The notes under the pieces: model-generated
The model's input: only the letters and a program-made list of their open reading frames with translations
Told to the model about the DNA's origin: nothing
Databases searched by the model: none
Shown here: positions 15,334 to 64,000 of the stretch, piece by piece
How positions within the stretch are numbered: the first letter of the stretch is position 1
How the letters are laid out: each line of letters starts with the position of its first letter
Assembly: GCA_010093995.1 (NCBI GenBank)
Contig: ML992504.1
Location: forward strand, 496,001 to 560,000
Source: Elsinoe ampelina
Taxonomy: Eukaryota
Direction of reading: 5' to 3'
DNA length: 64,000 nucleotides
Program-made: the position numbers and the translations under genes

Positions 15334-16438
15334 GCAAGGATGGAGGGAGGGACAGGTTCGCTGATGTATTTGTTTGATTTGTATCACTCCAATCGAGATA
15401 TGAGGGTCTTCTTTCGGTTCGCCGCTTCGTGCGTCTTCCTCTTCTTTGCCGCTGTTCGAGTGACCAAAGATAGCTCCTCAAGCACCGTCTACCCCTCACC
15501 TTCATACACCCAGGCATGACCGCGGTGAACCAATGCCTTCAAAAGATGATACGATACACAAGTACTACCCCTCCTAGCCCCTTGCCAACCCGAGCCCTAC
15601 CACCTCCTCTCGCCCCTTCTCCCCCCTCACGATTCATGCCAAGTCTCACATGCAATCACATGCCTCCCGCCTTTTCCCCCAAAAAACAGCAAAAAAGACA
15701 AAGCTGTCCTCGACCTCGAGCGATTACTCACTCTCAGCTTCGAACGCGGGTGCGGCGTGGGCTTAATGGGACCGATCCTGGGCTGTCTAGCAGCGTGTTC
15801 AACATCCGGCCACTGTGACTCTGGCTTTGTCTTTGGATCCGAGGCGGGTAAGAAAATATATGTACCCTTGTTGACTTGGAAGGGGATCGGTGGGAGCACG
15901 TGCTTTAAGATTATGTGACGGTCATTGAAAGGCTGGGTGTGGGAGGTGGGCAAAGGTTGCTACCTGATGTGCTTGTCGTTGGTGGGTTCGCATCGGCCTT
16001 TGACGAGGTGCTTGCGCTTCTTGATCACTCAGGCTCCAAGGTGCCTCGTCGAAGAGATAAGCTGATTTGTGCTGAGATACAGCTTCTGCCGCGGTCGTGT
16101 GCCACACAGTTCTTCGAGCTGACTATCCAGGACTTTGCCGTCCGTTCCTCGCACTTGAGGTCCTATCTCCGAGAAGCTACAGTAAGAGTGCCCTTGAGTT
16201 ATCTCCTTAAGGCAATCGTCAGGAGCAGGGCTCTCTTCCAGCTTACTTGGTGCCGTGCTGGCAGTTGCCCTCTTATGAGCACTTGCTAATGCTGTTCCTC
16301 CACTGGGAGCTGATTGAATTTGGGTCAGATTCATTAATTGCTTTGATGCTGCACCTTCTAGGGCTTCATAATGCAATGTCGGTCGTCAGTATCCAGTAGC
16401 CCAGAACTCTCTGTCGTCTCCTTTCGGCTTGATCGATC

Positions 16439-19400
16439 CTACACCGAGGTCGCATCCAACTCCTTCATCACGGCGTCCAAGGTCGTCGGACATCTCAACA
16501 CGTCCAAGCTAGTGATGGCCATGTAATGCACACCCAACATCCTCTGGAGAAAGGAATCCCCAATAGAATCGAGTTGCGACATGTGATTCTGCACAACCAC
16601 CATCCGGTCATACCACAGATCGTATTCCAGGTGTTGCCGAGTCTCCGTTTTCATAAGACGTAAACGCCGTCGACCCACCGTCTCAATTTCCTCGACCTCT
16701 GGGACTAGTTTGTCCAGGATGTGGAACTTCTGTTTCCTGCTCTTGCACCAATAGTCTAGGGTATTTTTCTTCGTGTCCGCCAAGAAGACATTGATTCTCG
16801 TACATGTCGGACACCCGCAGTCGAGCTTCTGCCTTGACCAGTCCGTCTTTGGTGGTTCGGGTCCTACTGCGTCGAGCGCCCAAGATAGCAGCATGCGGGT
16901 GACAGCATGCTGCGCTGCTTCTAGGATCGGACCCTCGAGCTGGACAACCAAGGAGGTCCCAAGAAGACGCATCAGTGGTATTGTGATGAGGGAGTGGATC
17001 TCAGTCACAGACTTGGACAGTTTCGTGACGCTGGCAGAGAGGCATTTCAAGAGAGTCGTGATCAGGTCTTCTTCGTCAGATCCTGTCCCGGTTTTCTCCC
17101 ATAACGCCTCCAGTATCCTCAAGATGTGGTTAGGATTTATTGTCCAGGCACAAGTGGCTCTGTGCGGTGGTAGTTCTGCCACGGTCCTATCTTCCTCCTC
17201 GCGCTGCCCGATTTGAAAGTGCTGCAATGACGTGCGGAGTACCCTCTTGAAGAGTGAGCATACTTTGTCATCGGACAGACCTTCGGTTTTTGGATGTGCG
17301 AGTGCGTCGAGGAACTCAAATGCCCAGTTAGTCCGGTCGATCCTCGCTACAATCCATGTTTCTATCCTGCCAGTAGTCAGATGCCCATATCATGCATTCA
17401 CGACATATCAGCCGGATTGCTCACTGCTGCAGCATATGTCCTCGCCCCCAAAAACGACCCAGTCCTACCAGAGCCGCAACGTCTCCACTCGAGGATGGCT
17501 TTATCTTCAGGACTGACGACGCTAGTGCGTCGAAGAAGGCACTGAAACGACCAGGCCGGCCGTTGCGTGCTCCAGGCGATACAAACACACTCGATTTGGT
17601 TCGCAGATTGGTAATTGCATTCGCCGTCTCTTTCGTGGTGATGGTGTCATTCTGTATTGCAGTAGCAAGTCTGCTTGGTCAGTGCTATTTCAGCTCATGA
17701 GTAGTGGAAACTTACTTGGACAAGAATTCTCCAGACACGTCTAAAGGTATGCAGCGGCCGATTCCTTCATGATGGACTACCCCAGATACCGCTTGGAGTA
17801 CATCAAAGATGCCTTGGATGCGATCGGCATCTCTCAGGACAAGCGCAGCGTAGACCATTCGCTTGCAGATCTCAACGTGGCATGACACGCTTGCCCTGCA
17901 TCTGTTATGTTTGCCAGTATGTGGCGGGCGGAATACTGCGATGACGACATCGAGCAAGTGAGCAAGCTGCCTGGAAGCGATCGAATCGTCAGGGGACATG
18001 TTCAATGTCTTTGTGAGATCTTTGATAAGGGGAATCACTGCCATGCGACACTCGTACCAAGTGCACCGCAACGACTGATCTAGATTGTAGGCATCGTTGT
18101 ACTCGCTTGGTACGATCACAGCCACCTATGAATATATCAATCATACTGGGAAACTCCTCAGGGGGCACAGCGCTTACTGCTCGATCGTACCGTTGCTTAC
18201 AATTGACATCGACGGAGAAGTTTTGGTAGGTCTGTTGCGTAATCGCACCCCACGATACTGGATCGTTTATCATGGGGTCGAAAATTGACGGCGGTATACA
18301 ACCCCATGTCGTCAAACCGGGATGAAATATCCAATTTGCTCCCCATGTCGTATTGCGCACCTGATGGATGGTACGTACTTTTGGTATCTCCGTTGGCCAA
18401 AAAGAACCATAGTCACTGGCGTTGTTGTCGTAATCCGAATCATCGTGCGACATACATTTGCCCTCGATGTACCTTTGGGCCCGAGCTTCGAAGACAACCA
18501 GACCGTTCGATGCCGCTAGAGCCAACAGCGAGGACACGACCTTCTGGTGGACGTGCCACAGTTCTGTATCCTCTCCAGGATCAATTGCTCTGCCCATGTC
18601 GTAGAACAGGTGCGGAATTACTGGCTCCGTAGAACAATCCTCCAATTGCCGCCACGACCGGAACGCTTCATTGATTGCGGCGTCCTGATCTGCAGCTCGC
18701 TTCAACGCCTGTACCGGCGGCTCCCCATCGCAGTCCCCGACCAGATCATATATCAGCAGCACTTGATAGCCCTCGGTGACCGGAGTCATGGCGTTGACCT
18801 CGACACCATGGTACCAAGCAGCATATGTGACACTTCCGGCGGGATCCTTGCCTGATAGCCAATGGCATTCACGATTATTCCAGCATAGACAGACATCACC
18901 TCCGGTATGGGGAGTGATCAGTTGTACTACCAAGGTCGCATATGCCTCCGGTCGCTTCGATTCTCTGCAATTGGTGTCAGTATCATGTAAATCGGCTGTC
19001 TCAACCACATCGTACTTGAAAGCATGGCCTAAATTGGCTCCCTCGCCGTGAATCCTTATGCAGCGTAGTTCCAGATTCACTTCATACTCCTCTAAGACGT
19101 CGAGATCATCGAATACATCGGGAATGATAGGGTCATACATCGTCTGCTTCCACCCGTCGTCGACGGTGATCTCGCCACCGGGTATCTCCCAGACATTGTG
19201 GCCGACGGCGTGACCCGAACTTGTCAGCCTTGCAATATCGACCTGCAATGCGTCGAGATCCTCCACATTCAGGTCAACACGACCAATATCCTTGACTGAC
19301 AATCCAGGATTTTCATCTTGCCCGATCACTTCTCCCTTGCAAGCGTGCGTTTTCAAGGGCTCCCAGTCCTGGAGACAAGATTTCAATGCATCCTTTATCA

Positions 19401-19479
19401 GCTTTTGCGGAGTCTCCTGCCCCTCGGATATTCTTTGTTCGGGACCTCCCTCAGCGACGGACTGGGCAAGGCCAGTCAT
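16439..19479 (-). CDS. 2OG-Fe(II) dioxygenase-fold family protein, copy A (5 exons; catalytic residues lost)
   Basis: Introns 19015-18965, 18177-18126, 17715-17671 and 17424-17367 join into one open frame. Homologous to copies B/C (NPGLSVKDIG, WEI, TLVVQLITPHTGGDV, AAWY, CGCPTC..FL). Confidence 0.75.
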
Positions 19480-19727
19480 GACTTTCCAGGCTGCCAGAGG
19501 CAAGGAGTTGATGGAGAAACAAACCAATACACCGAAGCGCAGGGGAGGTCGGAGGTGACGCGCCGCGCTTCGCGACTCGCGCGTAAATTAAATAAAAGTG
19601 GGTCATTTCGAATAACTATACTGCTCTGTACTGTGTTTTATATCCCATGCTCATCTGTCCATAGCATTCATCATCCGCTCCTCGTCCCTTCATCATATCC
19701 CAGCAAAGCCACCCCCATCCCGCCACT

Positions 19728-19817: not shown

Positions 19818-22800
19818 CTATATCGGCTCCTCCCTCGGCTCAATCAAAACCTCGTTCACACTAACATGCTCCGGCTGCTTCAAAGCATAAACGATACTCC
19901 CCGCCACATCTTCAGGATCCAGCACCTTCGCCCCGGTTGGCTCCCCATACTTCTTCAACGCCTCGGCATCACTGCTCAGCCCAAGCAACTCACTCTCCGT
20001 ATTCCCGGGCTGAATAGTCGTCACCCTCAACCCACTACTCGCCGTCTCCAACCTCAAGCCCTGCAGGGTAAACTCCACAAACGCCTTGGAGCCAGAGTAC
20101 ACCGCCAGACCAGGAAAGCACTTCCTCCCTGCGTCCGAGGAGATGGCGACGATGTGCCCTTTGCCGCGCTCCAGCATGCCAGGAACGGTGGAGGAGAGAC
20201 AGTTGAGTAGCCCCTTGCAGTTGACGTCGACGGTACGTTCCCAGTCCTCCACGTGGACGTTCTGCATCATGGTGAAATACATGACGCCGGCGCAGGAGAC
20301 CAGGATGTCGACTTTGCCGAGGTCTTTCTCGGTTTGGGCGATCAGATTCTCCACGTCGGCGCGCTTGGTCACGTCTGTCTTGACGCAGATGATCTTGCCC
20401 TCGCGCACGACGATGCGGCGTTTGAGTGCTTCGAGGGTATCGAGGCGGCGGGCCGCGAGGGCGACGTGGGCGCCTTCGCGGGCGAGTGCGGAGGCCACGG
20501 CGGCACCGATGCCGGAGCTGGCGCCAGTGACGACGGCGACTTTGCCGGTGAGAGGGCCGCGGATGCCGTGGCGGGCGGTGCCTCCTTTGGCGTTGTGGCT
20601 GCTGGGAGCGCGGTTGACCCAGCCACGAGCGAACCAGTGGCGGGTGTAGGTCTCGAGCAGAACAGCATCGACCTTGGGGCGCTCGACTACGGCACGGAGA
20701 GGGCGTGTCGCGGGATTACCGAGCACGGTGATGTCGCGCAGGAATTCGATGCTGGGCATACCGGAGCGGAGCACATCGATTGTGAATGCGCCATCGCCAC
20801 CTTTGACAGCACCTCGCTGCGAAGTCCAGAGACTAACCCACTCTTCGAATGGCAGCGGGGTCGTGGGGAAACCAAGTTCGTTCAGATGCTCAAACACGCT
20901 GACGGCAGTGACTGGCTGAGGATCACCAAGGTGGAATATCAGTTGATCCTTGGGACTAGACTTATCCTCTGTGATGTTTGCGAGATGGACGATCGACTTG
21001 CTGACAAAGTCGACAGGGGTCATCTCCGTACGCCAATTGGGAACGTCCGGATAGTGACCAAGCTGTGTGCTCTCGACTATGAGAGAAGTGAGCAGATCGT
21101 AGGCGTTGGAGGCTCCAGAGGCTGAATGGCCACTGATCGTACCAGCTCGCAGAATGCGGACGGGCAATCCTCTTTGAACTGCTTCGCGAGCTAGATACTC
21201 TGCTACACACTTGGTCTGACCATAGCCGTCAGGAATGGCAGAAGCGACCTCATCGACTTCGAGGATCTTGGTTTCCGGCCAGCCTTCTTGTGAAGGAGGA
21301 AGAACGCCGTTCGTCGAGACGTACTGGACAGTCGCACCACCAATGGCTGCAAGTCGCAAGATCTCTCTGGTACCGCCGACGTTGGCGTTTCTTAGAGCAG
21401 CATATGGATAGACCAAGTTGACAGTTGCAGCGGCATGGACAATGACCTGAACCCTCTTGGCAAGCTGCTCGAAAGGTTCAGGAGGAATACCGAAGCGCTT
21501 CCTGCTCAGATTACCCGGCAGAATCTCGATACGTTCCATGATTGAGTCTGACCACAAGCCGAAGTCGAGCAAATTTCGTCGAAGACGCGCGATACCTGCT
21601 GGGATATCTGCTTGAGTAGGGTCGCTGAAGCGGACCAGGCAGATGATCTTGGCAGAGGTAGATTCGAGGAGGTCATTGAGGATGAAAGGGCCGAGGAAAC
21701 CGGTAGCGCCTGTGAGAAGAATGGTGTCTGCCTTGTTTGCGGGGATGAGCTTGGTGCCTGGTGCAGGAACGATATCCTTGTCGAGCACACTGTCGGCTCT
21801 CATAATGTTCGGTAGGTCTGCTTGTACAGCTGCAGTGTGACCGTCTCTAACGGCGCGCACGGTGTGTAGATGACCATTGAGAGTAGGTGGATCAGCAAGG
21901 CGAGCAACTGGTACACGGAAGCCGAAGTTCTTCGAGAAACGTGAGGCAAGGTCGGATAGCAGGAGTGAGTGGCCACCAAGATCGAAAAAGTTATGTTCGG
22001 GAGTGATGGCGCTTCTCGGTGTGCTCAGAGTGGCGGCCCAGATTTCTGCTACTGCATCAAGTGATATCGGGTCGTTCTCGTCCTTCTTTGCAGTGGCTCG
22101 TACGGGTGAGACTGGCTTGCTATCTGTTGATCCAGGCTCAGGAAGAGCCTTCATGTCAATCTTGCCAGACACTGCATGAGTTGGGATCTTGTCAAGCCTG
22201 ACCCATAGCGTTGGGATCATGTACTGGGCAAGAGCTTGCGAAAGGACACGCCTGGCCGCAGGACTGCGAGCTCCGTCGTCGATCTTTACGCTTGGGCGTT
22301 CTTCGCTTGAATCCTTTTCGTCCGCAATGTATGCCACAAGCTGACGATTCAGGCCCTCGCCATGCGAAGTGACGACGCAGTCTCGAACCGCTAGATTCTG
22401 CACGATAGCTTTCTGGACCTTTGCAGGGACAATTGAGTATCCTCGCAGCTTGATCATGGCTCCGACTCGTCCTGTGATCTCTAGCAGGCCCTTGGAAGTG
22501 ATTCTTGCTAGATCTCCAGTGCGATACATGTATGCGCCGTGGGCGGGGTCGAACGGATCCGGGATAAATGCCTTTGCCGTCGTCTCAGGTAGATTGAGGT
22601 AGCCACGTGCTAGCTGATGTCCTCCGACGAAGAGCTCGCCCGCGTTACCATTTTCGACCCTCTGCCCGCTATCGTCCAAGATGTAGGTGCGTTTGGGATC
22701 CAGGAGAGGACCGACTGGGCAGACTTGAGCATCATCGCTGATCATTTCTGACACTACTCCTGCTGCTACTTCATGCGTCTCGCATGCGCTGTAGACATTG

Positions 22801-23726
22801 AGGAGACGGCACTTTGGAAGCGCTTTGAGAGTCTTTTGCGCCAAATCTGTTGTAACGACTTCACCGTTCAGCCATAGTGTGCGTAGATCCGGTAGACGAG
22901 TGGCTAACGCTTGATGCCTCGAGAGAACTGCTGCAAGCAGTGTTGGTGTCATGAGAGTCTCTGTGATCTTCTTGGATTGTAACGTGTTGACCAGGATGCC
23001 AGGGTCGTAACTCGTCTCGTCCGGAATGGCAACGACTGTGGCACCACGAAGCAGTGGTCGAAGAATTTCCCAAATGAAGAAGACATTGCAGGCGACTCGG
23101 TCGCCTGGCTTGAGGTCAGAGAGACCAAATCTTGCATTGTAAGAGTATACGGCAGCTTTGTGGACGCAAGCGATACCCTTGGGCCTACCAGTGGTGCCCG
23201 AAGAGTAGCAGACAAAGGCCAGCTTGTCAAGGTCGTGGGGGTCTGTTTCGTCAGATGCTACATTAGCATGACCATTTGAGTCACCGTTCGAGTGCCCATT
23301 TGCATGACCATTCGATCCGGATTGCTCTTCGTCCAGAATAATCAAGGGGGAATTTCCTCGGATCCTGCCGACTTCGGACCTGGTAGTGAGAATTACTGCT
23401 GGATTCGCATCCTCGATCACCTCATTCAAGAGTTCTGTAGGATATGCGTTCTCGAGAACCAGAAAGGCACCGCCCGCCCTGAGGGCTGCCAGACAGGCAA
23501 TGACATAGTCGGCACTGCGTCCCAGCAAGACGCCGACCAAGCTGTCTCGTTCCACTCCATAGCGGCCAATGTTTCGTGTGAGAGATTCGACCTTGTCGTC
23601 GAGCTGTGTATAGGTGTAGGTGTGGTTCTCATCCTCGAGTGCGACCAGATCTGGTGTCTCCTTGACTTGTTTCTTGAATAGAGCAGACAGGTCCAGCCTG
23701 GTGTCGATGATTTGAGGTCGGGACAT
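19818..23726 (-). CDS. ATRR: NRPS-like A-T-R1-R2 enzyme (glycine betaine reductase ATRR / NPS10 type)
   Basis: A domain YSSGTTGRPKG and YRTGDL; T domain FFDLGGHSL; R1 TGATGFLG and YGQTK; C-terminal SDR TGASSGIG and YSGSK; intronless; ATG 23726. Confidence 0.9.
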   Translation of the reverse strand: MSRPQIIDTRLDLSALFKKQVKETPDLVALEDENHTYTYTQLDDKVESLTRNIGRYGVERDSLVGVLLGRSADYVIACLAALRAGGAFLVLENAYPTELLNEVIEDANPAVILTTRSEVGRIRGNSPLIILDEEQSGSNGHANGHSNGDSNGHANVASDETDPHDLDKLAFVCYSSGTTGRPKGIACVHKAAVYSYNARFGLSDLKPGDRVACNVFFIWEILRPLLRGATVVAIPDETSYDPGILVNTLQSKKITETLMTPTLLAAVLSRHQALATRLPDLRTLWLNGEVVTTDLAQKTLKALPKCRLLNVYSACETHEVAAGVVSEMISDDAQVCPVGPLLDPKRTYILDDSGQRVENGNAGELFVGGHQLARGYLNLPETTAKAFIPDPFDPAHGAYMYRTGDLARITSKGLLEITGRVGAMIKLRGYSIVPAKVQKAIVQNLAVRDCVVTSHGEGLNRQLVAYIADEKDSSEERPSVKIDDGARSPAARRVLSQALAQYMIPTLWVRLDKIPTHAVSGKIDMKALPEPGSTDSKPVSPVRATAKKDENDPISLDAVAEIWAATLSTPRSAITPEHNFFDLGGHSLLLSDLASRFSKNFGFRVPVARLADPPTLNGHLHTVRAVRDGHTAAVQADLPNIMRADSVLDKDIVPAPGTKLIPANKADTILLTGATGFLGPFILNDLLESTSAKIICLVRFSDPTQADIPAGIARLRRNLLDFGLWSDSIMERIEILPGNLSRKRFGIPPEPFEQLAKRVQVIVHAAATVNLVYPYAALRNANVGGTREILRLAAIGGATVQYVSTNGVLPPSQEGWPETKILEVDEVASAIPDGYGQTKCVAEYLAREAVQRGLPVRILRAGTISGHSASGASNAYDLLTSLIVESTQLGHYPDVPNWRTEMTPVDFVSKSIVHLANITEDKSSPKDQLIFHLGDPQPVTAVSVFEHLNELGFPTTPLPFEEWVSLWTSQRGAVKGGDGAFTIDVLRSGMPSIEFLRDITVLGNPATRPLRAVVERPKVDAVLLETYTRHWFARGWVNRAPSSHNAKGGTARHGIRGPLTGKVAVVTGASSGIGAAVASALAREGAHVALAARRLDTLEALKRRIVVREGKIICVKTDVTKRADVENLIAQTEKDLGKVDILVSCAGVMYFTMMQNVHVEDWERTVDVNCKGLLNCLSSTVPGMLERGKGHIVAISSDAGRKCFPGLAVYSGSKAFVEFTLQGLRLETASSGLRVTTIQPGNTESELLGLSSDAEALKKYGEPTGAKVLDPEDVAGSIVYALKQPEHVSVNEVLIEPREEPI

Positions 23727-24525
23727 GTTTACCTGAAACGGGCTAAAGCAGGCTGCAAATCCGGTGTCGATCCCGAAGAGTTGCAAAGTGTTTCTCGTGG
23801 TGATATCTCGACAGGAACAACCTCAATTTCTCCACATTTCAAGGGGTGAAGTGAAGGAGAGTAGCGCTATGCGGAGTTTGATTGTGATAGCTCCGGCAAT
23901 TCGGTCGAGAAAGTCAAGTCGCTATCAGATGTGAATGCAACTTTTTTGTTGAGTGGGAGAGTGTAATTGAGAAAGCTCGGACCAAATGACGATTTGGGTG
24001 ATCAGGAAGTGAGAAGAGCTCGGGATGGCGCAATCAACGGCGTGGGCGTGCGTGGGAAACAGGACGGCGTGATGGAAGTGGAAGGGAAATTTCAAGCTCG
24101 ACGTCAAATGTGAGGCCCCTCTTTGTGCTACTTCCCAAAGTACCTTGTTGAGTTGTGTAGCATGCGCAATACTCCTCACTTTCATCTGCACAGCTTGCAA
24201 TAACTGGTCAGATAGATACAATTGATTGTCATCTTTTACTAGATGATAGATATGTACATAGTCATGCGGAGCGAGGGTATCAATATGGGTGAGATGCGCA
24301 TGCTCTTTCTCATCCTTTCAGCAACGCCCACGCCTGGATCGCTTGCAAAGGGTATATCTCCTTGCCAACATGGCAGCAAATCAATTCCAAATGGTCTCGC
24401 CTTTTTGTCATGAGGCATCAGACTGCCACTGATGGTGCCAGCTGGAGTGTTATTGAGGTACAGTTATGAAAGACTTTTCGTCATGAATCGTAGCGAGTGT
24501 AAGAAGACTCCGGGTCTCTTGTCGC

Positions 24526-32633: not shown

Positions 32634-33317
32634 GAGTCGGACGGCGAGCCGAGATGTTCGCGAAGGTCGACGTCCAAATCAAGTGCGCTCACAGAAGTGT
32701 CGGACGAGACACTTGAGAGGAGCAGATTCGGAAGGCTTCTTCGACCAAAGCGCCTCGATTGATGGGTATGGAGTTTATAAGGATGGATGATACCACTTTC
32801 ACTATATTGGGCTGGATGGAACGGCCACTGTGTATTGGATAGCGAGGCAGACTAGACCTAATGATCTCCTCTATTGATGACACTATAAAATCTCCTGCTC
32901 ATCCTAAGATCGCGGTGAACATGCATTGATGCCTCAGCTCGGGCTGCGCCGTCTGTGGCTGAAGCTCTCAACTCCGTCCCGCCGCAGCACTCTCGCTCCC
33001 GCTGTGCGCGACCAATCACTGCTGCTCACTGTAATATAGTGCCATCACAGCTAAGTCGGGATCTATACTCTCAGTCTCTGCCTGAAAGTGCAACTCACAG
33101 ACCAACCCAGTCATACCTGACTCTAGCCATCCGAGACACATCGGTACCTCACTTGACCACCGCTCCATCAGGCAGCCACCGCCTCTGAAGTGGGCTATAT
33201 AACCCCGCTCATCCCTTTACCACCGTCTACTCACACATGAGCACAAGCCCCACTCACCTTTCCAGCTTGTCCGACTCTTTGACCACCCCCACCACATCCC
33301 TCTCCAAGACGTAGTAT

Positions 33318-36301
33318 ATGGACCTCGCTCGTCGCCGCGATCCCAACTTTGACGAAGACGAATACCGCCGCCAACGGGACCTCCAGGAACACCTGAACAG
33401 ACTTCGCCGAGACAATCTCCGGCGTGCTGCCAGAGCCAACAGAATGCGGAGCAATGACTCGTCCTCGGACGAGGACGAGAGCGGGCCTGTAGAGACACCG
33501 CAGGAGAGCACGGCCGAGAACAGCACGAGTGGCGATCCGGCTAAGAATGGAGATGACAAAGCGGAGACGAAAGAGGAGGGTGAGAAAGAGGTGAAGAAGG
33601 ACGGTGAGAGCGAGAGTGAGAAGAAGGATGGCGAAAAGAAAGAGGACGAGAAGAAGGAAGAGGACAAGAAGGAGGAGAAGCTCGACCCCAAGCTTGTTGG
33701 CATGAGTGTTGGTCTAAAGCACCTCTACTCGGGCAAGGAGGACAAGAAGGGCAGATTTCAGTGGCAGACCACCATCCCGGAGGACGTAGGTAAGCCTGCA
33801 GAGGACGCAGAGACGCAGAAGTGGGCATTGATCGTCCGGCATATCAAGGTCTACAATGACCCGAGCAAAGTCCTGGCGGTACACAGTATCGTGGTACAAA
33901 GCCCGCTGCTGAAGGATTTGCTGAAAGGCGTGCTAAAGGGGTATCCCGGCGTCACAGTGGGGCTTCAGAGGCTCGAGTTTGGCAGCAAATTTGAGCCGCT
34001 GATACATCGGTGGCCACAGCTTACCGCAGCGATCGAGGAGCTGAGAAAGAAAGTCAAGGCACGAGAGACAGGAGAGGAGGCGGAGAAGGGCCATGGCGAG
34101 GAGGAGAATGAGGTGAAGCATGAGCAGGTGGATCAGGATGGCAAGATCTTACCAACAGAAGCCACGACAAAGTCAGATGAGAAGAAAGACGACACAAAGG
34201 CAGAGGACGTACTTGTGGTCACGAAGCCCACGACGACAGCCGAGTCAAAGGATGTCGTCAAAGAACCCACACCAGAAGAGCAAGACGCTACCAAGCTCAA
34301 GCATGCCGAGCTTCTCTACGACCTCCTTGTCTCCGAGTTCCAGACTCTGATCGACTCTTCACAAGACATGAAGGCAAAGGGTGTCATGACCTACGAGTAC
34401 CTTTGGACAATATTCCAGCCTGGCAGTTTCATCTTCTCCAAGGTCGAGGGCCAAGAACGAGTATTTCGACTACGCAGCGGCAGGTACGGTCAGGACCGGG
34501 ATGGAAATCCTGTCTTTTGGCTCATCATGCTCTACGTGGAGTATGACGGCGTACGATTTGGCTACCAGAAGCTAAATGTCTTCATCCGAGCTTTTAATGG
34601 CACACGAGGCATATCAACGCTTTCCAGCTTTCCATTGGAATCCCATCAGCACAAGGACGAAGTCAAAGCTCGACTACTTGCACGTGGCGAGAAGGTTGAA
34701 GATCTCGCCGGCACGCACTACCGTTCATATGACGGTATGGGCTGGAAGGAGGGTAATTGGGGTCAGAAGGAGAAGTACAGCGTCAAAGGCAGGATCATAG
34801 TGGACACCTATGGCTGGAATAGATTCGACCCCAATCAGAGCATCTATGTCAGTCCACTGAACAAGGACGCTCTGGATATGGGCGACAATCGGTCCGGCAG
34901 TGGCGATGACGAAGAGGAGTATGGCGATATGGACAATGACATGGAGGATGGGATGCCGATTGATGGTGTGTATCATCTGATCGCTAGAGAGTTACCTTGA
35001 GCACTGACAATATCGAAGGTCACTTTGCCGACGAGGACGAAGGTGAAAATCGCGTGCCCCTCGACGAAGACCAGAAACTCATCTGCACCCATCTTGTCCG
35101 CGGCTACGCTTTGAAAGAGAAGCTGTGGCTCAATATGTACGCCAACTCTGTCTCAGAAATAGCCTTCAACACGAGGGCCTTCGACTCGCTTGTCTTGCCC
35201 GAAGCTACGAAAGAGCTAATTCTGGGCTTCACCTCCTCCCAACAGTCCTTCCGCAACCAATTTGACGACGTCATCGAGGGCAAAGGAAGAGGCATAATCC
35301 TCCTTCTTTCTGGTCTGCCCGGTGTCGGAAAGACTCTTACAGCCGAGTCGGTTGCCGAGGAGATGCGAGTGCCCCTCTTCGTCATGTCGGCAGGAGACGT
35401 CGGGCTCGACAGTCGTCACATTGAGACTCGTCTCCTGGACGTCTTTGAAATGGTCACCCGATGGAACGCTATCCTTCTGCTCGACGAGGCTGATGTCTTC
35501 CTCGAAGAGCGCTCACTTCATGAGATCGAGCGCAATAAGCTCGTCAGCATCTTCCTACGAGTACTAGAGTACTACGAGGGTATCATGTTCTTGACGACCA
35601 ACCGGGTCCAGACATTTGATGCCGCCTTTCAGAGCAGAATCCACATCAGTATCGACTACCCCGAGCTCAGCATTGAGAGCAGGAAGCAGGTCTGGAAGAA
35701 CTTTCTGGTACAGCATGATGTGGTGCAGAAGGCTTCGAGAGAAAAGGGGCCACCGAAGCCGATTAGTTCGAGTATCAAGAACACACCTGCAAAGAAGAAG
35801 TTGGAGGAGGTAAAGACTGAGGAGAAGGTTGTGGTCGGGGACAAAACCGAGGAGAAGATCGGTGACAGCGAGAAGCCAGCTGTTAAGTCAGCTGACACTG
35901 ACAAGCCAGAAACGAAGCCAGCAACGACCGAAGCTACCGATGCTCAAGGTGGGAGCACTACCTCTGCGACTGAAGACACAGTAGCCAAAGACGACAAGAC
36001 CGAACCAGAGAAAGCAAGCGACAAGTCCGCTAGCGACTCGACCGAGAAGGCGGAAGCAGAGAAGAACCACCAGCTCGCCACCCAGCCCCACTGCATCACA
36101 GAGAGAGACATTGATACGCTAGCACGCATGCATATGAACGGCAGACAGATCAAGAACGTGCTAAAGACGGCACAGCTCTTGGCTAGCAGGAGGAAGGAGA
36201 GCTTGAGTAAGAAGCACATCCAGACCGTACTGGATGTGACGCAGCATTTGCATAACAGCACGAGGGAGAATGAGCGGACGAGGAGTAGTATCTTTGCGTG
36301 A
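33318..36301 (+). CDS. Fungal AAA+ ATPase with long N-terminal domain and charged insertions, 2 exons
   Basis: Intron 34966-35018; Walker A GLPGVGKT, Walker B LLLDEADVF, FLTTNR sensor, DAAFQSRIH, MNGRQIKN. TATA-like CTATATAA at ~33195. Confidence 0.9.
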
Positions 36302-36764: not shown

Positions 36765-39700
36765 ATGTCTCAGTATCACGATTCCTCGGATAGCGGTCCA
36801 AGTGTCGACGACGATGACTCCTCAGTGAGCTTGGGAGAAGGCGTGTCACATTTAACCCGTAGCAACAGCGACTTGCGAACGCAGCTACACCAATGCTTCA
36901 CATCGGCATACGTCTCTGGCACCTTTGCCAGCAGCGCTACAGTAGACACCTGGCCGAATCCTGCTCTCTTCGTACGAGACGTGGGCTACGTGGGTCTTCC
37001 ACTCGCAGATCCCACAGCACTCAAGGCCGTCGCCCAGAAAGCGCCCTTCGGACAAGGCGAATCTACTTTCGTGGACGAGACCGTTCGTAAGACCTGGGAG
37101 ATAGACGCTTCAAGGCTACAAATAGGTAATCCGCAATGGCATAACTTCATACAGGGGACTGTGGTGCCCGTTGTGACAACCGCGATCGGTGTAGCAGGGT
37201 CATCAAGGACGTCCACCAGAGCCGAGCTGTACAAGCTTTTACTGTACGAGGAAGGAGCCATGTTCAAACCTCACAGAGAGTCGGTTGCCCTCTGTCACTT
37301 GTAATATCGCGCTCGCTCACGCGAAACAGTACGCCAAAAGTGCCCGGCATGTACGGAACTCTCGTCATCAGTTTGCCTTCACCGCATACCGGAGGAGATG
37401 TCATCCTACGACATGACAATAGGTCTATACAATGGCAGTCATGCACTTATCCGATATGGGTTGTGTCGTTCTGTGCTTGGTATGCAGATGTTGAGCACGA
37501 AGTCCTGCCCGTGACATCTGGCTGCCGACTCGTGCTTACTTACAACCTCATCGATACCGCTGTTACATCTGAAAAGTCATGCGTGAAGGTAGTCACGTCA
37601 CCAGACCAACGGCTTGCCACCATTCTAAATTGCTGGCAAAGATTTACCCCCGACTGGAAGAACAAGGATAATTCGGACTACTTGTGCTACGCTTTGAAGC
37701 ACAAATACACCGACAACAGCCTCACTACAGGCATGCAAGCTCTGAAGGGACCAGATGCCATGATCGTTTCACAGACTGCACGAACTGCCGATGTCAACGG
37801 ATTCTCGGTCTTTCTCGCAACAGTACAGAAGTGCGTCACCGGAGAGGTGGATGGCGGCGAACGGCGAAGCTCTCAGCAAATCGTCGATGTCACCAGTATT
37901 GGTTGGAACCTTCGCTTGATAGTCTCGCTTGATGGCCGCGAGTATGCGAGGGACGTTCCCATGGAAGAATCGCAAATGATCCAGGAAGACTTTTTCAACA
38001 GCGCACATCCGTCCAAAATAGAGCCGAGCACATTTCAAGGTAATTATGGCTCATCGGCTGTACACTGGTATCGTTCTTCGGTGAGTGCAAGAAGCGTGAT
38101 GTGTCGACGGTGACTATGCTGACAGCAACAGGTGATGGTCATCATGCGAGACAAGGATGTTGTCCCGACCTTGCTAAAGACTTCGCTAGCAGGTCATACT
38201 ACCCGAGATGATAGAGGAATCAAGGACCGGCTGTCTCTGCTGATCGAAAATTGCATGCAACGTCAAGGGGATCCCAAATCAGCATCTATGCTCAGCGCAG
38301 CATGTCGAGCAGTGCATCAACGGCTAGTGCAAGAGGATTACAAGGATGTGCCTGACCGTTGGTCAACTACCAGAATGAAGCGGGTATTTGACCCTTCGGA
38401 TGACGACCTGGCCTACATTGCTTACTGTGCATGCTATATTGGCAACTCCGTCATCTTCCACAACATGATAGGTCGCCTGAAGCACCTCACACTGCCTTCT
38501 ATGCAATCATTCGCTGCAGTTCTTGCGCCGAGGGTACTTTTGAATTTCGAGCAGAGGTAGGGACCCAACAGTCGCATGACGAGTGCGATCAGGCTGACCT
38601 TATGTGTGCAGCCTTTCGACCTTGGTGACCAAGACCGACGGTCCTTGGCAGAAGCTCCTCAATGCAGTCACATTCGAACAGGCATGGAGACTGCGGTGTA
38701 ATGAGCCTGCTGCTTGTGCTGCCCTACCGATCGTCGAGCGATGCAGTGATATCTTGTTCGAGCGCGCCAGTCAACATGGAGCGACGGGTGAAGATGACGG
38801 CGTGATACTTGCCATATGGGCGAAGAACCGAAGGGCTCCAGTGCTCGGACATAGGTATGTCTCCCTGCTATTGGTCGCTTCAACCACTCACCCTTGATAG
38901 TGTCCTACCGTACCTCGAGCGTGTGCAACCTCGGCCACAGTTTGTGATTGGTTTTTTTGGCGGAGAGCCACAGAGCGCCAAAGACAGCGTGGGGCGAGCG
39001 ACTGCACCGTATCGAGTTCACCAGGCTGCTTAGCCGTGCATTGCATCAGCTTGTACCTTCAGAGACGACGAGTGCCAGCAATCCGGTGACTGTCCGCGAC
39101 CCTCGCGAGCCTGCACCGTTATGGGCTTGCAAATTAGACTGGCAAAACTGGTCCACTCTGTCAGATTTTACGCTCTTGACACAAAATTGGGAGCTGGCAG
39201 GCTCGTTGATCGAGACATTGACAAGCTACGTGCTTGATCTCGCGCGCTCGGCACCAGACATACACCCCTCTTTCACCCTACCCTTTCTCGACGTCACTTC
39301 CAGAACCAGCTCTCGGGGAGTACAGATTCCAGTCCACTTCTTTTCTACACTCTCAAAATGTTACAGAAGGCTTCTAAGGTCATGTCTCAAAGACTACCTT
39401 GGCGAGTCCCCGCCAGAGATCGACAGCAGCATGGAGGGTCTTAGCTGCAGCTGCGAAATCTGCTACGAAGTCAATGAATTCCTCGAGGATGCAGAAGAGA
39501 CCACGCTGGAGCTAGCTGACATGTGCAAACAGGATCGATTCCACTTGCACCAGCAGCTGGATGAGACGGAGTGTAGTCACGAGACCTCCCATGCCGAAGA
39601 GATTGTGATGGTCATTCGCAAGCCTGTAGCGGCTGGCACAAAGGCGTTCAAAGACTGGCAGATGCGGCAGGAGTTCCTTGAGCCCTATTTGCAGCCTGGT

Positions 39701-40021
39701 GCATTCATGGATCATGCGTTCCTGGAAACGATCCTTGGAGATGCGTATGAGGAGATAGTGAACATGGAGATGGATGTGGAGGACGAGAATGAAGATGGCG
39801 CAGCTTCTCATTCGAATCAGGAGGAGGACGCTGCAGAGGAGCCACGCGGGCCGGACATCAGAGAGCAAGCGCCAGTCTCTCTGGGATACCACCACGATGC
39901 CAGCGTGACCGCGGACAGGGCCGTGTCGACGATGGCTCGACCGGTGGCTATACCGGCTGCAGTGGTTCCAGCGAAGCGTCGTATTCAGGAGCTCGACGTG
40001 GTAGATCTGACGGGCACGTAG
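36765..40021 (+). CDS. 2OG-Fe(II) dioxygenase-fold family protein, copy B (5 exons; +1 frameshift at a T7 run ~38952-38958)
   Basis: APFGQGESTFVDETVRKTWE, LYKLLLYEEG, spliced H-R-D, GTLVISLPSPHTGG, AWYADVEHEV..GCRLVLTYNL. Introns 37280-37329, 38081-38131, 38557-38611, 38855-38900; CSCEIC motif; ends PAKRR..VVDLTGT*. Confidence 0.8.
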
Positions 40022-40273: not shown

Positions 40274-43200
40274 ATGGACATCTACCGCATCCCCGGCGCC
40301 GGAGAGCTCCAAGTCGACGACCTAAAAGAATCCCTCGAATCCTGCTTCACCTCCTTCGACGTCCCCGGCGGTACTTTCGCGCACTCGGCACGCGCAGCCC
40401 AGTACCCCAACCCCGGCCTGCACGTCGAGGGCGTAGGCCTCGTCAGCTTGCCGTTGACAGACGCCAGCGGACTGAAGTCCGTGGCGGCACAAGCGCCGTT
40501 TGGGCACCGGGAGCGGACGATTGTCGACGAGACGGTGCGGAAGACGTGGGAGGTTGATGGTGGGGAGGTCACGTTTCAGAACACGGCATGGGAGGAATGG
40601 GTAGAGGGGACTGTCTTGCCCGAGGTGCTGGAGGGATTGGGTGTTGGTGAGGGGGTCGAGGTGGATGCGAGGTTGTATAAGTTGTTGTTGTATGATGAGG
40701 GGGCGTTGTTTAGGGCGCATCAGGAGTATGTTTGTCCACTACTGGGGTTGTGGGGATGATGCTGACTAGGCTAGTACGGAGAAGGAAGAAGGAATGTTTG
40801 GGACGCTGGTGATTTGTTTGCCCAGTGCACATACGGACGGCGATGTCAGACTTACGCACAACGATACTGAGATCGTCTGGTCGTCGAGCAAGGATTCTGC
40901 CTTTGGGGTGTCGTATGGAGCATGGTATTCAGACGTCATCCACGAGGTGAAGAAAATCACATCCGGCCACCGTTTGGTCTTGACGTACAACCTGATCAAC
41001 TTGTCTGGAGACGAGGAGCTCTCTGCCGAGACCGTGGAGGAGTCCAACAGCCAGCTGACAGAGCCACTTGAGCAGTGGCTGGAAGCTAATCTCGTTGGCT
41101 ACCGGAATGAGATCATCCAGTATCTTTGCTGGGGTCTTGGTCATACGTACAGTGAGGCGAGTCTGCGATTGTCCAATCTCAAAGGCGAGGACCTACCACT
41201 GGTCAAGCATGTGGCTGCGATTGCCAAGCGTACGGGTTTTACCGTCTTGCTTGCTACCATGGAGAAGGATGTTTCCGGTCCTTGCGAGGATGGGTATGAA
41301 GATGACGACTACGACCCATACGACGAGGACGAGGATTGGGATGAACGTCAAGGAGGCAGCGGCGTCAATCACACTATAACGGATATTGTGGAACAGCATT
41401 TGAAGTTGACCAAAGTCGTCGACTTGAACGGTAAGCTGCTCGCCAAAGGCCTCGTAGCTGATGAGCAGAATATCATCCAGGAAGATCTGTTCGATGGTGT
41501 TGATCCATCGCGAGAGAACTACACTCCCTGGCAAGGCAACTATGGATGTGAGAGTACTCAATGGTATCGGCAGTCGGTAGGCATGGTTACACCTGCCATC
41601 TGACTAGCGCTGATAGTGACAGGTCATGATGCTCGTCCGTGATGATCAATTCCCGGCCATCCTTCTGGCAGACTCCTTCGCAGGCAAAGGCGATATAAAC
41701 TCCATCTTCCACTCTTTGCACCGGGACATGCTTTCCGCAACGCCAGGCGACACTCGGCCTGCACATCTGCTGGGTAGTGCACTGTCTACTGTGGAGAACT
41801 TTGTTCGTAATGGATCGCCTGACACGAGAAGTTCGAGACGCTACCACTGGTCTTCGGAATCCACGACAGCGACATTGTCGGACAAAGCACTCCTTGCCGT
41901 TGCAGAGTATGCTATGTACCTTCATGAACCATGGCGGATGGCGGACATTGTGTCTTTGATGAAGAAGGCTCCTAATTCAGAGTACTACCAGACATTCATG
42001 GAGAAATGGGGGACGTACTCGCTACCCAGAACTGGTGCCGGTTTCGAGGAAGCGTAAGTTGCCTGAATGTGATTCTGCTCGGGACGCTGACTTCCTATTG
42101 GGCTATCAACCATGATTCACACCGAGAAGAACGCTTTCCAGCGACTCCATGCAGTCGTTGGTGTGCAGGGGGGCCTGCAGCGCAGTATCCGGAATCGACC
42201 AGTCGGGTATCAAAGCGATCAGCTCACCGAGCGAATCGACATCTGGGCAAAAGGCATGGTAGAAGACATATGGTCGAACTTGAATCCACAGACCAAGGAA
42301 GATGGCACAGCCATGGGCGTCTTCGGTGTCTGTCAAGGCACACAGGAGCTCAAGGATCGGTGAGAAGGGAACCCTACCTGCGCCCTGCAACATTGCTAAA
42401 CTTCACAGGATTGTGCCAAAGGTCGTCGAGCATGCGGACAGGACGGCTTTCTTTCTTGCCTTCCTGGCGGAGTACTACGTCAACGGCGGTGCTATTGATG
42501 ATCCGGAGCATTATGATCACATCATCGTATCACTCGTTCCACTAGCCATTCCAGAGTTCTCACTGGCGGAACTCACCAACATTCAAATCACCAAGAGTTC
42601 TATCGACGTTCCTAATGGAGCCCTGGAGGTGAAGAATTTGGTAGGATCGATCGACCTCTCGTGGCTCTTCTGCGCGCTACTGGAACACAAGCATGTTGAT
42701 AACGCAGTCAAGCTCTTCAAGGCTATTGCTGAGTCAGCCATCGTTCTCTCAGGTATGGCTCCACAAGTGGACTATCAGACCACCCTGCCGTTCCTCAGCA
42801 GCATCTCCAAGTCTGAGCACATGTCGCCGACCCCAGAACAGCTTCTGGAAGTCATGAAACGATACCTACCACAGATTCTGGTCTGCTTCATCCGCTACTT
42901 CGTCAAAACCGCTCCACCAAGAGCGACATGGGCCATGTCCCGGCTCTCATGCAATTGCGTCGACTGCTCGTACATCAGCGACTTTCTCGCCAACCCAGGT
43001 CAGCAGTTTCTCCGCCACCGGGGCGCCACAAAGAGTATGCGACATCACATCCACATCATGCTGGACCGCACAAGCTGCTCGCACGAGACTACCGATCGTG
43101 GCCGGTGGAGCTCGACTATGGTCATTACTAAGCGAAGCCAACACGGTCAGGCGGCATACACTATATGGCAACAGCGTGCAGATCGGGCGAGACAGGCGAT

Positions 43201-43558
43201 CGCAGACATACGCCAGTCATGGCTGCAACAGGTCCTCGGTGACAGCTACGCAGAAATCATCGACCTGAAGATCCCACAGCGGTACAGGACAAGCAGTGCT
43301 GCGCCGACGGCGGAACAAAGAGCTGCGTCGGAACAGAGGCTGCATCGATTGCTGACTGAGCATGCGGCGAGGGGTGGGCAAGCGGCTCGGCACGTTCAGG
43401 AGATGCTTGCGGCGATGACTGCGGGGCCTTCTGCCTCGGGAACAGGGACTGCAATGAGACAACCACGGGTAGTCGGTACACCTGTAGCTGGCCGGCCGCC
43501 AGGGTCGACTGTGCCCGCGAAGAGACCGATTGAGGTTGTGGATCTCACTGGGGACTGA
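40274..43558 (+). CDS. 2OG-Fe(II) dioxygenase-fold family protein, copy C (5 exons; intron 3 lacks a canonical AG)
   Basis: APFGHRERTIVDETVRKTWE, LYKLLLYDEG, spliced H-Q-D-TEK, AWYSDVIHEV..GHRLVLTYNL. Introns 40726-40774, 41577-41622, 42054-42101(?), 42360-42408; CNCVDC motif; ends PAKRPIEVVDLTGD*. Confidence 0.8.
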
Positions 43559-43890
43559 AAGGCCACAGCAAGGCGGGGACATACATTGTCCTACTGTATG
43601 CACAGTTGCCGTTCGAGAACAAGCACCAACTAGAACTAATTCGGGGTCTCGGAGTGGAGTGTATGCTTCAGAAGCAATCATGAACCTCACGCAAGGACAA
43701 TCGCTTTCGATAGCGTAAATCTAAGCAAACAGGGTAAGCTGGTAATGAAAATGGCATCGACCGCTTTCTCCTACATTTCCTTCTCACAGCACACCACATC
43801 TCAGCGTACTGGTCGAATAATAGTGCTATCGCCATCCCGTTCCCATCGAGCTCCAGGTCAACAACTCTGTATACTCTCCACCTCAGAGAC

Positions 43891-45251
43891 ATGTCCTCAC
43901 CTGCGACCACCGCTGGTGGAAGACCCGTTGAAATGGGCGCTCAGGATTGTGTGAAAGAACTACTGGGAACGTCCCTTCAGCTTCACCTCAACAATGCCAC
44001 AGGAGATCCAATCGTCAAGGCTCAGTCCGAGGCCAAAGCTGCTGCAGCTTTCAATTTGTGGCAGGTCATGGTGTCGCGATCGTGCTCTCCGTCTCTTCTG
44101 TACTGGCCTGTTCAAGTCGATGGCGAGACTTTGATCGTGCATCCAGAAAGGGCGGCTGCTTTGAAACAGCTCATGGAGATGATGTCAACTGAAGCAAGCC
44201 GACTTGGCTTCTCGATTGCTCTGGCTTATTTCGACAAAGAGGACCGCTCTCTCTCAAGCAGTGGCAATGATCCGCTGTGCGGAAAGCAGACCCCTCCGGA
44301 AAAGGTGACATTCGCCAGATTGGTCGATATCACTGGCAAGCTCATGAATGAACATAGCATCACTGCTGATTTCGAAGAGATGGTGCTTTTCTGCCATCTG
44401 GCAGACCGCAAGGGCAAGGCTTCAGTGACGCTCGAAACGTTCAATGTCCGAGCGAAGACTGGTCAAGCTCAGAAGATGGTCAGCCGAAACTTGAGCCGTT
44501 TAGAAGACGAGACTAATACACTCACAGGCCTTGGTGTTCCTCACAGCTAAATCCTTGCAATGTGTGAATCTTCAGCCAGCGTTGTCCAACAGTGGTAGAT
44601 GCAAACTTGAAGGCCTGCTGCAGGACCGAGGCCTGCTGCAGGGGACCGCATGAAATCCGATAATGAACCCGACCGGCAGCGCACATTCGAAGCGCTCTCT
44701 CACGCTTGCAGGGCAGTACTTGATGTTTCAGTCGCCTGCAAGGCAAACAATGTGTCTCTACCCGAACTACTAAGAGATAGCGGATTCTGCAACAGTGACT
44801 TGATCATTGTGGTCAGCTTCGCAATCATGCTTGACGACGACAACTTAAACCATCATAAAGGCTTGCAAGGCATCCTTGACAATATTGCAGCCTTCAAGCA
44901 CGGACACGATCTGGTTGTGCTAGCAGATCTGCTTCAATTGGATCGATCTGGTTCGTTGAAACGAGAGTATGACTTCCATTCCCAGCCAGAGAGCATCGAC
45001 TAACCAGTTACAGCTTGCCTTTCATTTTGAAGAAAGCCGAGGATGGCCCAGCAGCCTTGCGGTCATTACTCGAAGAGGAGCGAGCGCAAGAGGATTCCAC
45101 TGGCAGACTTCGATTGATTGACATTCCGAGCTCGTACAGGATCCTGCACGAAATACTGGAAGGTCGATCAACGCAATACAAGCGGTTATCAACGCGTATT
45201 TTGCCGTCCCAGAACGCGGTCCGTCGTGTCCTATCATGGGGACTCTTCTAG
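43891..45251 (+). pseudogene. Truncated, frameshifted copy D of the same family (no dioxygenase domain, no C-terminal region)
   Basis: ASRLGFSIALA, RLVDITGKL and LSHACRAV match middle segments of copies B/C. Introns 44479-44527 and 44967-45013 are at homologous positions. An 18/20-bp duplication at 44611-44648 breaks the frame. Confidence 0.6.
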
Positions 45252-62869: not shown

Positions 62870-64000
62870 CTAGTCTTTGTCTAGCCTCACAGCCGCATTC
62901 CCCTCTATGAACCCCAAATCGACCTTGTGCCCCAACAAATCCCTAATATTGCTCAACTTGTATTTAATCATCGTCGGCCTCTCCAACGACAACCCAAACC
63001 CGTACACCCTCAAATCCTCGGGCAAGCCCATCGCCTCCAACATCTCCGGCCTGAACATCCCACTGTTCCCTATCTCAACCCACTTCCCCAGTCCCTGATG
63101 GTACCCGAAAACCTCCATACTCGGCTCAGTATAGGGGTTGTAAGCCGGCTTGAAGCGCAGATTCGTGATGCCCAGCTTCCCGAAAAATCCCTCCAGGAAA
63201 GCCATCAACCCCCCGAGAGTGAGATTGTAATCCGCGATCACGCCTTCGATCTGGTGGAACTCGGCGAGATGCGTCGCGTCGACGGATTCGTTGCGGAAGA
63301 CGCGGTCGATGCTGAAGTACCGGCAGGGACGCGGGTCGCGGGCGAGGCGGTGCAGGCAGTAGGTCGACACGGCGGTGGTGTGGGTGCGGAGGACCAGGCG
63401 GGCGGCTTCGGCCGGGTTCCACGGGTAGCGGTAGCCGATGGAGCCGTATTTGCCGGTTTCGTGGACGGCGCGGACGTTGGCGAAGTAGGTCTCGTAGGGG
63501 GTGGGGTGCGGGGTGTCCGTGGGGGCGAGGGACTCCATGGCGTCGAGGGCGGCGTCGGCTTCGGGGTCGGCACGCGGGGGGTCGGCGAGGGGTGGGTCCG
63601 AGACGTAGAAGGTGTCTTGCATGTCGCGGGCGGGGTGTTGTTGGGGGACGAAGAGGGCGTCGAAGTTCCAGAAGCCGGAATCGACGAACCTGGNNNNNNN
63701 NNNNNNNNNNNNNNNNNNNNNNNNNNNNNNNNNNNNNNNNNNNNNNNNNNNNNGGGCATTTCTATGAAGCCTTGGTGGAAGAATATCTTACGGAACTCTT
63801 CCCGGACCTTGTTCAAGGGATGCAGAGCGCCCGCTTGTTGAGGTGCGCCGAGTGATTTGAAGTTGTATGGTTTCCAGTTTGCGGTTTGCCATGAGCCATT
63901 CTCGAGCATGTCTGGTGTGAGATCTGTGACCTCGACCTGTATCTCCTTGGCATACTTTGGGCCCTTCTTGACAATGTAATGGATGACCTTGGCTGTCGTG
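62870..64000 (-). CDS. FRS2: Cytosolic phenylalanyl-tRNA synthetase alpha subunit (5' part outside window; spans assembly gap)
   Basis: [72 protein letters not shown]. Confidence 0.95.
63694..63753. other. Assembly gap (60 N), probably covering an intron donor of the PheRS gene
   Basis: Run of N. On the minus strand it is followed by ..CCAG|GTTCGTCGAT (acceptor, then FVDSGFW), and the frame changes across it. Confidence 0.9.

Follow-up and report, generated by a model that had tools for sequence, protein, structure and literature searches.

What keeps a gene open when its product has lost the residues by which its relatives are expected to hold iron and 2-oxoglutarate (2OG)? The question is raised by gene A on the minus strand of a 64,000-nt stretch of the genome of Elsinoe ampelina (assembly GCA_010093995.1, contig ML992504.1, positions 496,001 to 560,000), hereafter called the window and numbered from its first letter. 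Together with its paralogues B and C in the same window, A belongs to a family of proteins built of an N-terminal domain of the PF13640 type (2OG-FeII_Oxy_3), a helical middle region and a C-terminal module with a CxCxxC motif. We found that A gives rise to a correctly spliced transcript of five exons and that the residues at all four catalytic positions of its N-terminal domain have been replaced. A is an expressed, ligand-less paralogue and, on balance, has probably been retained for a non-catalytic role.

We modelled A from the sequence alone, locating intron 4 by an exhaustive search of donor and acceptor sites. The joined frame of 2835 nt encodes 944 aa and contains a single stop, the terminal one at 16441-16439, which leaves 17366-16442 as the coding part of exon 5. 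All four introns have GT..AG ends, and three of them contain a CTGAC motif resembling a branch site. The preliminary description of this DNA had given the same coordinates and the same intact frame with four canonical introns, and the peptide strings that it quoted from A were correct. The public model of the gene is considerably shorter. Hypothetical protein BDZ85DRAFT_259131 of Elsinoe ampelina (P0001) has 636 aa and is identical to residues 1-636 of our model. It reads into intron 4, whose donor GTGAGC holds the TGA that closes the exon-4 frame and serves as the stop of the public model, and it is missing the last 308 residues with the CxCxxC module. In the exhaustive protein search, query residues 1-434 were 100 % identical to residues 1-417 of P0001, so the public model likewise excises the 17 codons of intron 1.

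Four public sequencing runs (X1 to X4) contain the locus. Their label 'RNA?' is a guess, and we take the runs to be derived from RNA because the four GT..AG joints are seen spliced in them. Contigs were aligned to 16200-19700; they report the presence and splicing of RNA rather than the level of expression or the protein, and gaps in the cover by X3 and X4 are uninformative. In X1 (study P1), one contig of 3945 nt lies on 16200-19489 in five pieces and skips 58, 45, 52 and 51 nt; these gaps have CT..AC ends on the plus strand and are exactly the four modelled introns. X2 (study P2) shows all four joints as well, X3 shows the joint of intron 3 and X4 that of intron 4. The check by RNA that had been proposed for A thus came out in its favour, with contigs of two studies removing all four introns at the modelled coordinates. 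We also considered intron 1 as a false call, as it is in frame, 17 codons long and free of stops, and its translation would keep the string 'LHDTD'. This was ruled out by its conserved position, by the public model and by the RNA joints. At position 16302, in the 3′ untranslated region of A, the window has A and X2, X3 and X4 (all study P2) have G; this is the sole difference between the window and these three runs, and none falls within the coding sequence of A.

Oxygenases of this fold bind Fe(II) through a His-x-Asp/Glu...His facial triad and hold 2OG by its C5 carboxylate, with an Arg or Lys of the last core strand. Across intron 1, A reads ...IHGEGANLGHAFK/ESKRPEAYATL... (the slash marks the junction), and further on ...AWYHGVEVNAMTPVTEGYQVLLIYDL... 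In the 79-sequence alignment A1, the four catalytic columns are filled in A by A153, K155, N212 and Q222, where 58 of the 79 members have H, D, H and R. A second alignment of 86 sequences, made with MAFFT from A, B, C and 83 of the 129 other matches (those that cover the domain), has the canonical residue in 71 of 86 sequences for the first His, 71 for the Asp, 71 for the distal His and 79 for the Arg. B carries HRD and C carries HQD, and in both of them the Asp codon is interrupted by an intron between its second and third bases; intron 1 of A interrupts the Lys155 codon at the same place and in the same phase. The spacing from 'EGA' to K155 and from K155 to T165, in 'TLVV', equals that in C. 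Because the intron phase is the same, the flanks are ungapped and the spacing on both sides is equal, we equate the family's H-x-D with A153-F154-K155. The distal His corresponds to N212, or to V211 in the ungapped reading, and the Arg to Q222 in every alignment, as the preliminary description had claimed in noting the loss of the distal His and the exchange of Arg for Gln.

The losses extend well beyond the ligands. Only three of the 15 invariant columns of alignment A3 are kept in A (T165, G177 and G220), along with 20 of the 38 nearly invariant ones. In intact members, conservation reaches 80 % or more in 64 columns; of these A keeps 26, B 59, C 60 and other ligand-less members 28-39, which makes A the most diverged member aligned. 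The 'VDxxVRK' segment is deleted, and the invariant Gly-Asn of 'TGNEG', located after the oxygenase domain, is V406-D407. A contains no facial triad, of which a gapped alignment would rescue only H152 and E156, and it has Q222 in place of the 2OG-binding basic residue. With the iron ligands, the 2OG-binding Arg and most other invariant residues of the active site gone, A cannot be a canonical oxygenase; judging from these residues, we infer that it would bind neither Fe(II) nor 2OG in the canonical way and would be inactive as such an enzyme.

The N-terminal domain of A still has its hydrophobic and glycine core: Gly, Leu, Val, Trp and Tyr are kept at core columns, for example in the strings 'ATLVVQL.TPHTGG', 'AWY', 'PVT.G' and 'L.IY.L'. 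In the ESM Atlas model of P0001, which is of low confidence (predicted template modelling score, pTM, 0.50; predicted local distance difference test, pLDDT, 0.58), residues ~40-240 align with small phage 2OG oxygenases at reported template modelling (TM) scores of 0.65-0.72. We treat this alignment of a predicted model as a lead for a surviving oxygenase fold. The C-terminal part is better kept. In 43 other sequences, 24 columns of this part reach a conservation of 70 % or more; A keeps 15 of them, and of the nine that it misses, four lie in the tail. The retained residues include P, C819, C821, C824, FL, K-F-H, K and W, in agreement with the CxCxxC-x5-FL...(R/K)xH pattern of the module; the CxCxxC site had already been described as kept, and it occupies residues 819-824. 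When the tail columns are set aside, the contrast between the N-terminal (26/64) and the C-terminal part (15/20) is significant by Fisher test (p=0.010).

In the tail, which falls within the last 40 residues, [VIL][VIL]DL[TS] comes after a basic patch, an arrangement that resembles a nuclear localisation signal (NLS) plus a SUMO-interaction motif (SIM). It is found in B, in C and in 15 of 38 family proteins of at least 850 aa. Since only this fungal subset of the long members carries it, the tail does not define the family. A ends with ...TLDAVMKELDATSV soon after the last conserved motif, similarly to several other tail-less members, so the statement that its C-terminus has no such tail also stands. 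Tailed examples are P0005, P0009, P0017, P0022 and P0025, among others; the tail of B lies at 39960-40018 and that of C at 43500-43555, and bacterial members are without it.

The homology of A to the family is clear. A scored 127 bits (E 5e-41) against a hidden Markov model (HMM) built from 61 intact members, which ties its N-terminal part to the family of B and C. PF13640 itself gave 27.3-35.3 bits with intact relatives (cut-off 27), 25.5 with B and 22.5 with C. It gave no match with pieces of A at E up to 1 or with P0001 at E up to 0.01, and no Pfam oxygenase model recognises A. Among the PADLOC and NCBIfam models none matched A, and the intact members matched only the generic 2OG domain model. 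Against solved structures, the profiles A1 and A2 hit only helical designs and one chance match, and none of the structures is near by sequence, even for the intact family. In databases the members are named either 'Prolyl 4-hydroxylase alpha subunit Fe(2+) 2OG dioxygenase domain-containing protein' or 'hypothetical', and literature searches on PF13640 in fungi and on TOTE found no paper on the family, nor any on TOTE itself.

Numerous ascomycetes and basidiomycetes have members of the family, which is also widespread in bacteria. Of 568 candidate stretches in the bacterial genome collection, 511 code for a relative, a protein of ~810 aa with the same architecture including CxCxxC. H, D, H and R are present in all 62 bacterial full-length homologues examined (of 80 loci kept). 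Among the other 78, mostly fungal, sequences of alignment A1, 20 depart from the canonical residue at one or more catalytic columns and 15 at two or more, gaps being counted as departures. To judge by these alignments, loss of ligands is a recurrent event in the family, repeated among fungal paralogues.

No conserved neighbour of the bacterial gene was detected, the best-shared gene occurring in four of the 22 loci with full flanks. In ~11 of these 22 loci, a gene of the toxin-antitoxin or defence type lies within the two nearest genes on either side, a count made without a control. The types recorded are AbiEi/AbiEii (three loci), an AEP-TOTE primase-helicase-DUF559 gene or pieces of it (three loci) and Schlafen AlbA_2 (two loci), and PIN, Fic, HipA, RHS, patatin and TROVE in one locus each. 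This uncontrolled count gives only a lead that the family resides in variable islands. The gene with AEP-TOTE primase, ResIII helicase and DUF559 endonuclease parts adjoins the family gene on the same strand in loci L002 (10783-13359), L052 (10339-13302) and L072 (5442-7462); the Pfam name for this type of gene is 'TOTE conflict system'.

The closest relatives of A are the tandem copies C and B in the same window. The exhaustive protein search with A resulted in 131 matches at E<=0.001, three at <=1e-10 and one at <=1e-30, and, besides A itself, the best among 1.84 billion representatives were C (phmmer E 2.6e-21, 30 % identity) and B (1e-10). By tblastn within the window, the N-terminal part of A found C at 3e-23 and B at 2e-16, and the C-terminal part found B at 5e-15 and C at 1.5e-10. 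Pairwise identities in the N-terminal part are 31.6 % for A-C, 29.1 % for A-B and 44.8 % for B-C; in the C-terminal part they are 25.1 %, 25.4 % and 31.6 %, respectively. P0002 is C, and P0003 has the motif strings of B. Searched with the family HMM, the 64-kb window yields no further copy, and a putative fourth copy at 43738-44547 was ruled out, as it does not match this model.

Both paralogues seem to be damaged. Near 38950, within a run of seven T, the frame of B changes by one base (open reading frame, ORF, 38806..39033 against ORF 38948..40021), and the 688 aa of the public model P0003 end in this other frame and do not include the CxCxxC module. Either a genuine frameshift or a homopolymer error of the assembly could account for the change. 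Intron 3 of C (42054-42140) has a good GTAAGT donor and a GCTGAC motif resembling a branch site, and no AG at the position of the acceptor of B (...CTATTGGG/CTATCAACC). The TAA within this donor is the stop codon of the public model P0002 (562 aa), and P0132 (609 aa), the orthologue of C in Elsinoe batatas, is likewise modelled through another frame at intron 3. A had been described as the only copy without a visible lesion; its own intactness is confirmed, and the lesions of B and C, as read from their sequences, are putative.

A is flanked by a gene for a flavin adenine dinucleotide (FAD)-dependent monooxygenase and a gene for a protein like a non-ribosomal peptide synthetase (NRPS) of the adenylation-thiolation-reductase-short-chain dehydrogenase (A-T-R-SDR) type. 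The latter is a single ORF of 1334 codons at 19818-23822, directly upstream of A on the same strand, whose end is ~340 nt from the ATG of A; its domains are AMP-binding, PP-binding, a NAD_binding_4 reductase and a fused short-chain dehydrogenase. B and C lie 17 kb from A, beyond an HDAC gene, an ING gene and a gene with DUF7025 and an AAA ATPase domain (33315-36298); this last gene lies directly upstream of B and has the same strand as B. Repeats are not abundant in the region. The window contains an assembly gap of 60 N at 63694-63753.

Table 1. Positions in the window of gene A, its parts and active-site codons, and of its paralogues.
Feature	Position	Strand	Basis
Gene A, complete coding sequence with stop, 944 codons in five exons	16439..19479	minus	own exon model; X1 contig with the four introns removed
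Exon 1 of A, ATG at 19479-19477, ending after base 2 of the Lys155 codon	19016..19479	minus	agreement of model, RNA-derived contigs and P0001
Intron 1 of A, 51 nt, GTACGA...CTGAC...CAG	18965..19015	minus	joint 18964/19016 in X1 and X2
Exon 2 of A, remainder of the degenerate oxygenase domain and region beyond	18178..18964	minus	model and RNA-derived contigs
Intron 2 of A, 52 nt, GTAAGC...TAG	18126..18177	minus	joint in X1 and X2
Exon 3 of A, helical middle region	17716..18125	minus	model and RNA-derived contigs
Intron 3 of A, 45 nt, GTAAGT...CTGAC...CAG	17671..17715	minus	joint in X1, X2 and X3
Exon 4 of A	17425..17670	minus	model and RNA-derived contigs
Intron 4 of A, 58 nt, GTGAGC...CTGAC...CAG	17367..17424	minus	joint in X1, X2 and X4; unspliced in one X3 contig
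Exon 5 of A, C-terminal module with CxCxxC, missing from the public model	16439..17366	minus	model and RNA-derived contigs
Codons H152-A153-F154 and first two bases of K155, site of the family His-x-Asp	19016..19026	minus	alignments
Codons H207-G-V-E210-V211-N212, with N212 (or V211) at the distal His	18793..18810	minus	alignments
Codon Q222, replacing Arg	18763..18765	minus	alignments
Codons C819-G-C821-P-T-C824, retained CxCxxC	16802..16819	minus	sequence
Paralogue B, HRD...H...R intact, apparent frameshift near 38950	36765..40018	plus	tblastn with pieces of A
Paralogue C, HQD...H...R intact, intron-3 acceptor not visible	40274..43555	plus	tblastn with pieces of A

As A is only 30 % identical to its paralogues, the rate of synonymous substitution (dS) between them is saturated. 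In simulated drift, random substitutions, without insertions or deletions, were introduced into the N-terminal coding sequence of C until its product was 30 % identical to the start. Such unconstrained drift produced a mean of 14.9 stops per 418 codons and a minimum of five, and none of 200 runs was free of stops. A is open over 944 codons and has four working introns, so selection has apparently acted on its frame through most of the divergence; a constraint that was lifted very recently would be compatible with this result. The GC content of A by codon position is 0.571/0.416/0.584, against 0.466 in its introns. Repeat-induced point mutation (RIP) was rejected as the cause of the divergence, with TpA/ApT of 0.53, (CpA+TpG)/(ApC+GpT) of 1.25 and no stops, by customary thresholds. 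A FastTree of the 86 sequences placed A beside the B/C clade and grouped it with long-branch ligand-less sequences. Because the best pairwise matches of A are C and B, we regard this grouping as likely long-branch attraction, and no conclusion was drawn from the tree.

Taken as a whole, the open frame, the splice sites, the transcription and the C-terminal module have all been kept, and A is for this reason most likely maintained for a non-catalytic job. It would use the apparently retained fold and the CxCxxC module, for example to bind the substrate or a partner of the family without turnover, and, devoid of the basic and SIM-like tail of its catalytic relatives, would probably act in a different place or context. 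A shares two features with pseudoenzymes: it is homologous to active enzymes but free of their essential catalytic residues, and it is encoded by an intact gene with spliced RNA-derived contigs from two studies. Purifying selection may have maintained it, as the drift runs and the better preservation of the C-terminal module than of the N-terminal domain indirectly suggest. Hence, of the pseudo-enzyme retained for a role that the preliminary description had proposed, the ligand-less, intact and expressed part is borne out by alignments and RNA, and the retention for a role is plausible; the specific roles that it named (reader, decoy, inhibitor or antidote) are speculative.

Several points weigh against this interpretation. 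The sole match to A above 50 % identity among the 1.84 billion representatives is A itself. For C, by contrast, the protein library contains an orthologue of 83 % identity from Elsinoe batatas (P0132), so a sister proteome is represented there. A may be either old and lost elsewhere, very fast-evolving, or merely unannotated in relatives, as the search covered the protein library. One X3 contig (17346-17670, record 10) is unspliced through intron 4, so a retained-intron form exists, whose product would be the 636-aa protein that lacks the CxCxxC module. The contrast between the two halves of the protein is not significant when all 24 C-terminal columns are included (p=0.093), and strongly relaxed constraint on the N-terminal half would be expected to look alike in such alignments. 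In the alignments by the HMM of intact members and by MAFFT, H152 falls on the canonical His and E156 on the canonical Asp, 'AF' being an insert, so that part of a metal site might have survived. The replacement of H-x-D by A-F-K, noted already in the preliminary description, agrees with the residues and the intron phase, though not with these gapped alignments; the pairing of H152/E156 appears less likely, as it requires three indels and a shifted intron.

One rival reading is that A is a transcribed relic without function, still open because its last constraint was lost recently. The missing orthologue, the lowest count of family-conserved columns, the apparent damage to B and C, which suggests decay of the family in Elsinoe ampelina, the transcript form retaining intron 4 and the low pLDDT would all suit a relic. 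Yet the divergence from B and C is too great for an open frame without selection, as the drift runs indicate, and a decaying gene is difficult to reconcile with four introns precisely spliced in two studies, with a C-terminal module that keeps every Cys of CxCxxC and with a GC pattern that is still of the coding type. We consider a relic unlikely. The pairing of H152 and E156 leads to another possibility, that A is still a metal-dependent enzyme whose site has been remodelled around, for example, H152, E156 and either H207 or E210, perhaps with another cofactor or chemistry. H207, E210 and E219 are indeed near the strand of the distal His, but ungapped flanks and intron phase put K155, not E156, on the Asp, and the distal His and the Arg are lost in every alignment. 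With eleven further invariant columns around the site and the GN motif also replaced, and with no Pfam oxygenase model recognising A, such an enzyme seems very improbable.

As a special case of the non-catalytic role, A could specifically antagonise or assist its catalytic paralogues B and C, as a dominant-negative form, an antidote or a regulatory subunit. It would then heterodimerise with them or compete for the same target through the C-terminal module. Pseudoenzymes that regulate active paralogues are common, the nearest relatives of A in the whole protein library are C and B of the same window, and all three share the C-terminal module, A being without the tail of the other two. However, unrelated genes of the housekeeping type occupy the 17 kb between A and its paralogues, and B and C may themselves be defective, so we hold this version to be rather doubtful. 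A still more speculative version, to which we give little credence, starts from the parent family. It would be a conflict-type protein common to fungi and bacteria, whose gene in bacteria may stand alone in variable islands by AbiE, HipA, Fic, PIN, Schlafen-AlbA_2 and AEP-TOTE primase-helicase genes. Fungi would have gained the nuclear, SUMO-directed tail, and A would be a fast-evolving, dead and lineage-specific antagonist (decoy or antidote). This would explain why A has no orthologue, why it has shed the tail and why only the target-binding C-terminal module is conserved.

A few consequences can be drawn. The public gene model is corrected from 636 to 944 aa and regains the only well-conserved module of the protein. 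A also provides a clean case, backed by RNA, of a gene for a putative oxygenase fold stripped of its entire active site that is still open and expressed. A ligand-less paralogue is in itself unsurprising, as pseudoenzymes are common and 15 of the 78 other aligned members lack at least two of the four residues. Its parent family is large, uncharacterised and spans bacteria and fungi, with the ligands kept in the bacterial homologues examined and lost in fungal paralogues. Should the dead copies and the live enzymes turn out to share a target, the former would offer a handle for finding the substrate of the family.

Among known systems, the nearest to A are the two-domain PF13640 and CxCxxC proteins themselves, namely B, C, the KVT40_004933 protein of Elsinoe batatas and the ~810-aa proteins of Verrucomicrobiota and Acidobacteriota. 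A is homologous to them over the full length and of similar size, has the CxCxxC...FL...H module in common with them, and shares the intron position with B and C. It differs from them in lacking H, D, H and R and 12 of the 15 invariant columns, the GN of 'TGNEG' among these, as well as the tail and a match to PF13640. The PF13640 oxygenases of the prolyl 4-hydroxylase type are the parent fold family of the relatives of A, and the ESM Atlas model of A aligns to small PF13640 proteins, but A fails their HMM and does not have their defining ligands. JARID2 of animals is a JmjC protein that acts at least partly without catalysis. For Epe1, a JmjC protein of fission yeast, a noncatalytic function is reported to disrupt heterochromatin (PMC6624913). 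As in these two proteins, a domain with an oxygenase fold appears to be kept in A in a protein that would act without catalysis. In contrast to A, Epe1 and JARID2 belong to the JmjC family, have known partners and roles in chromatin, and are conserved across species.

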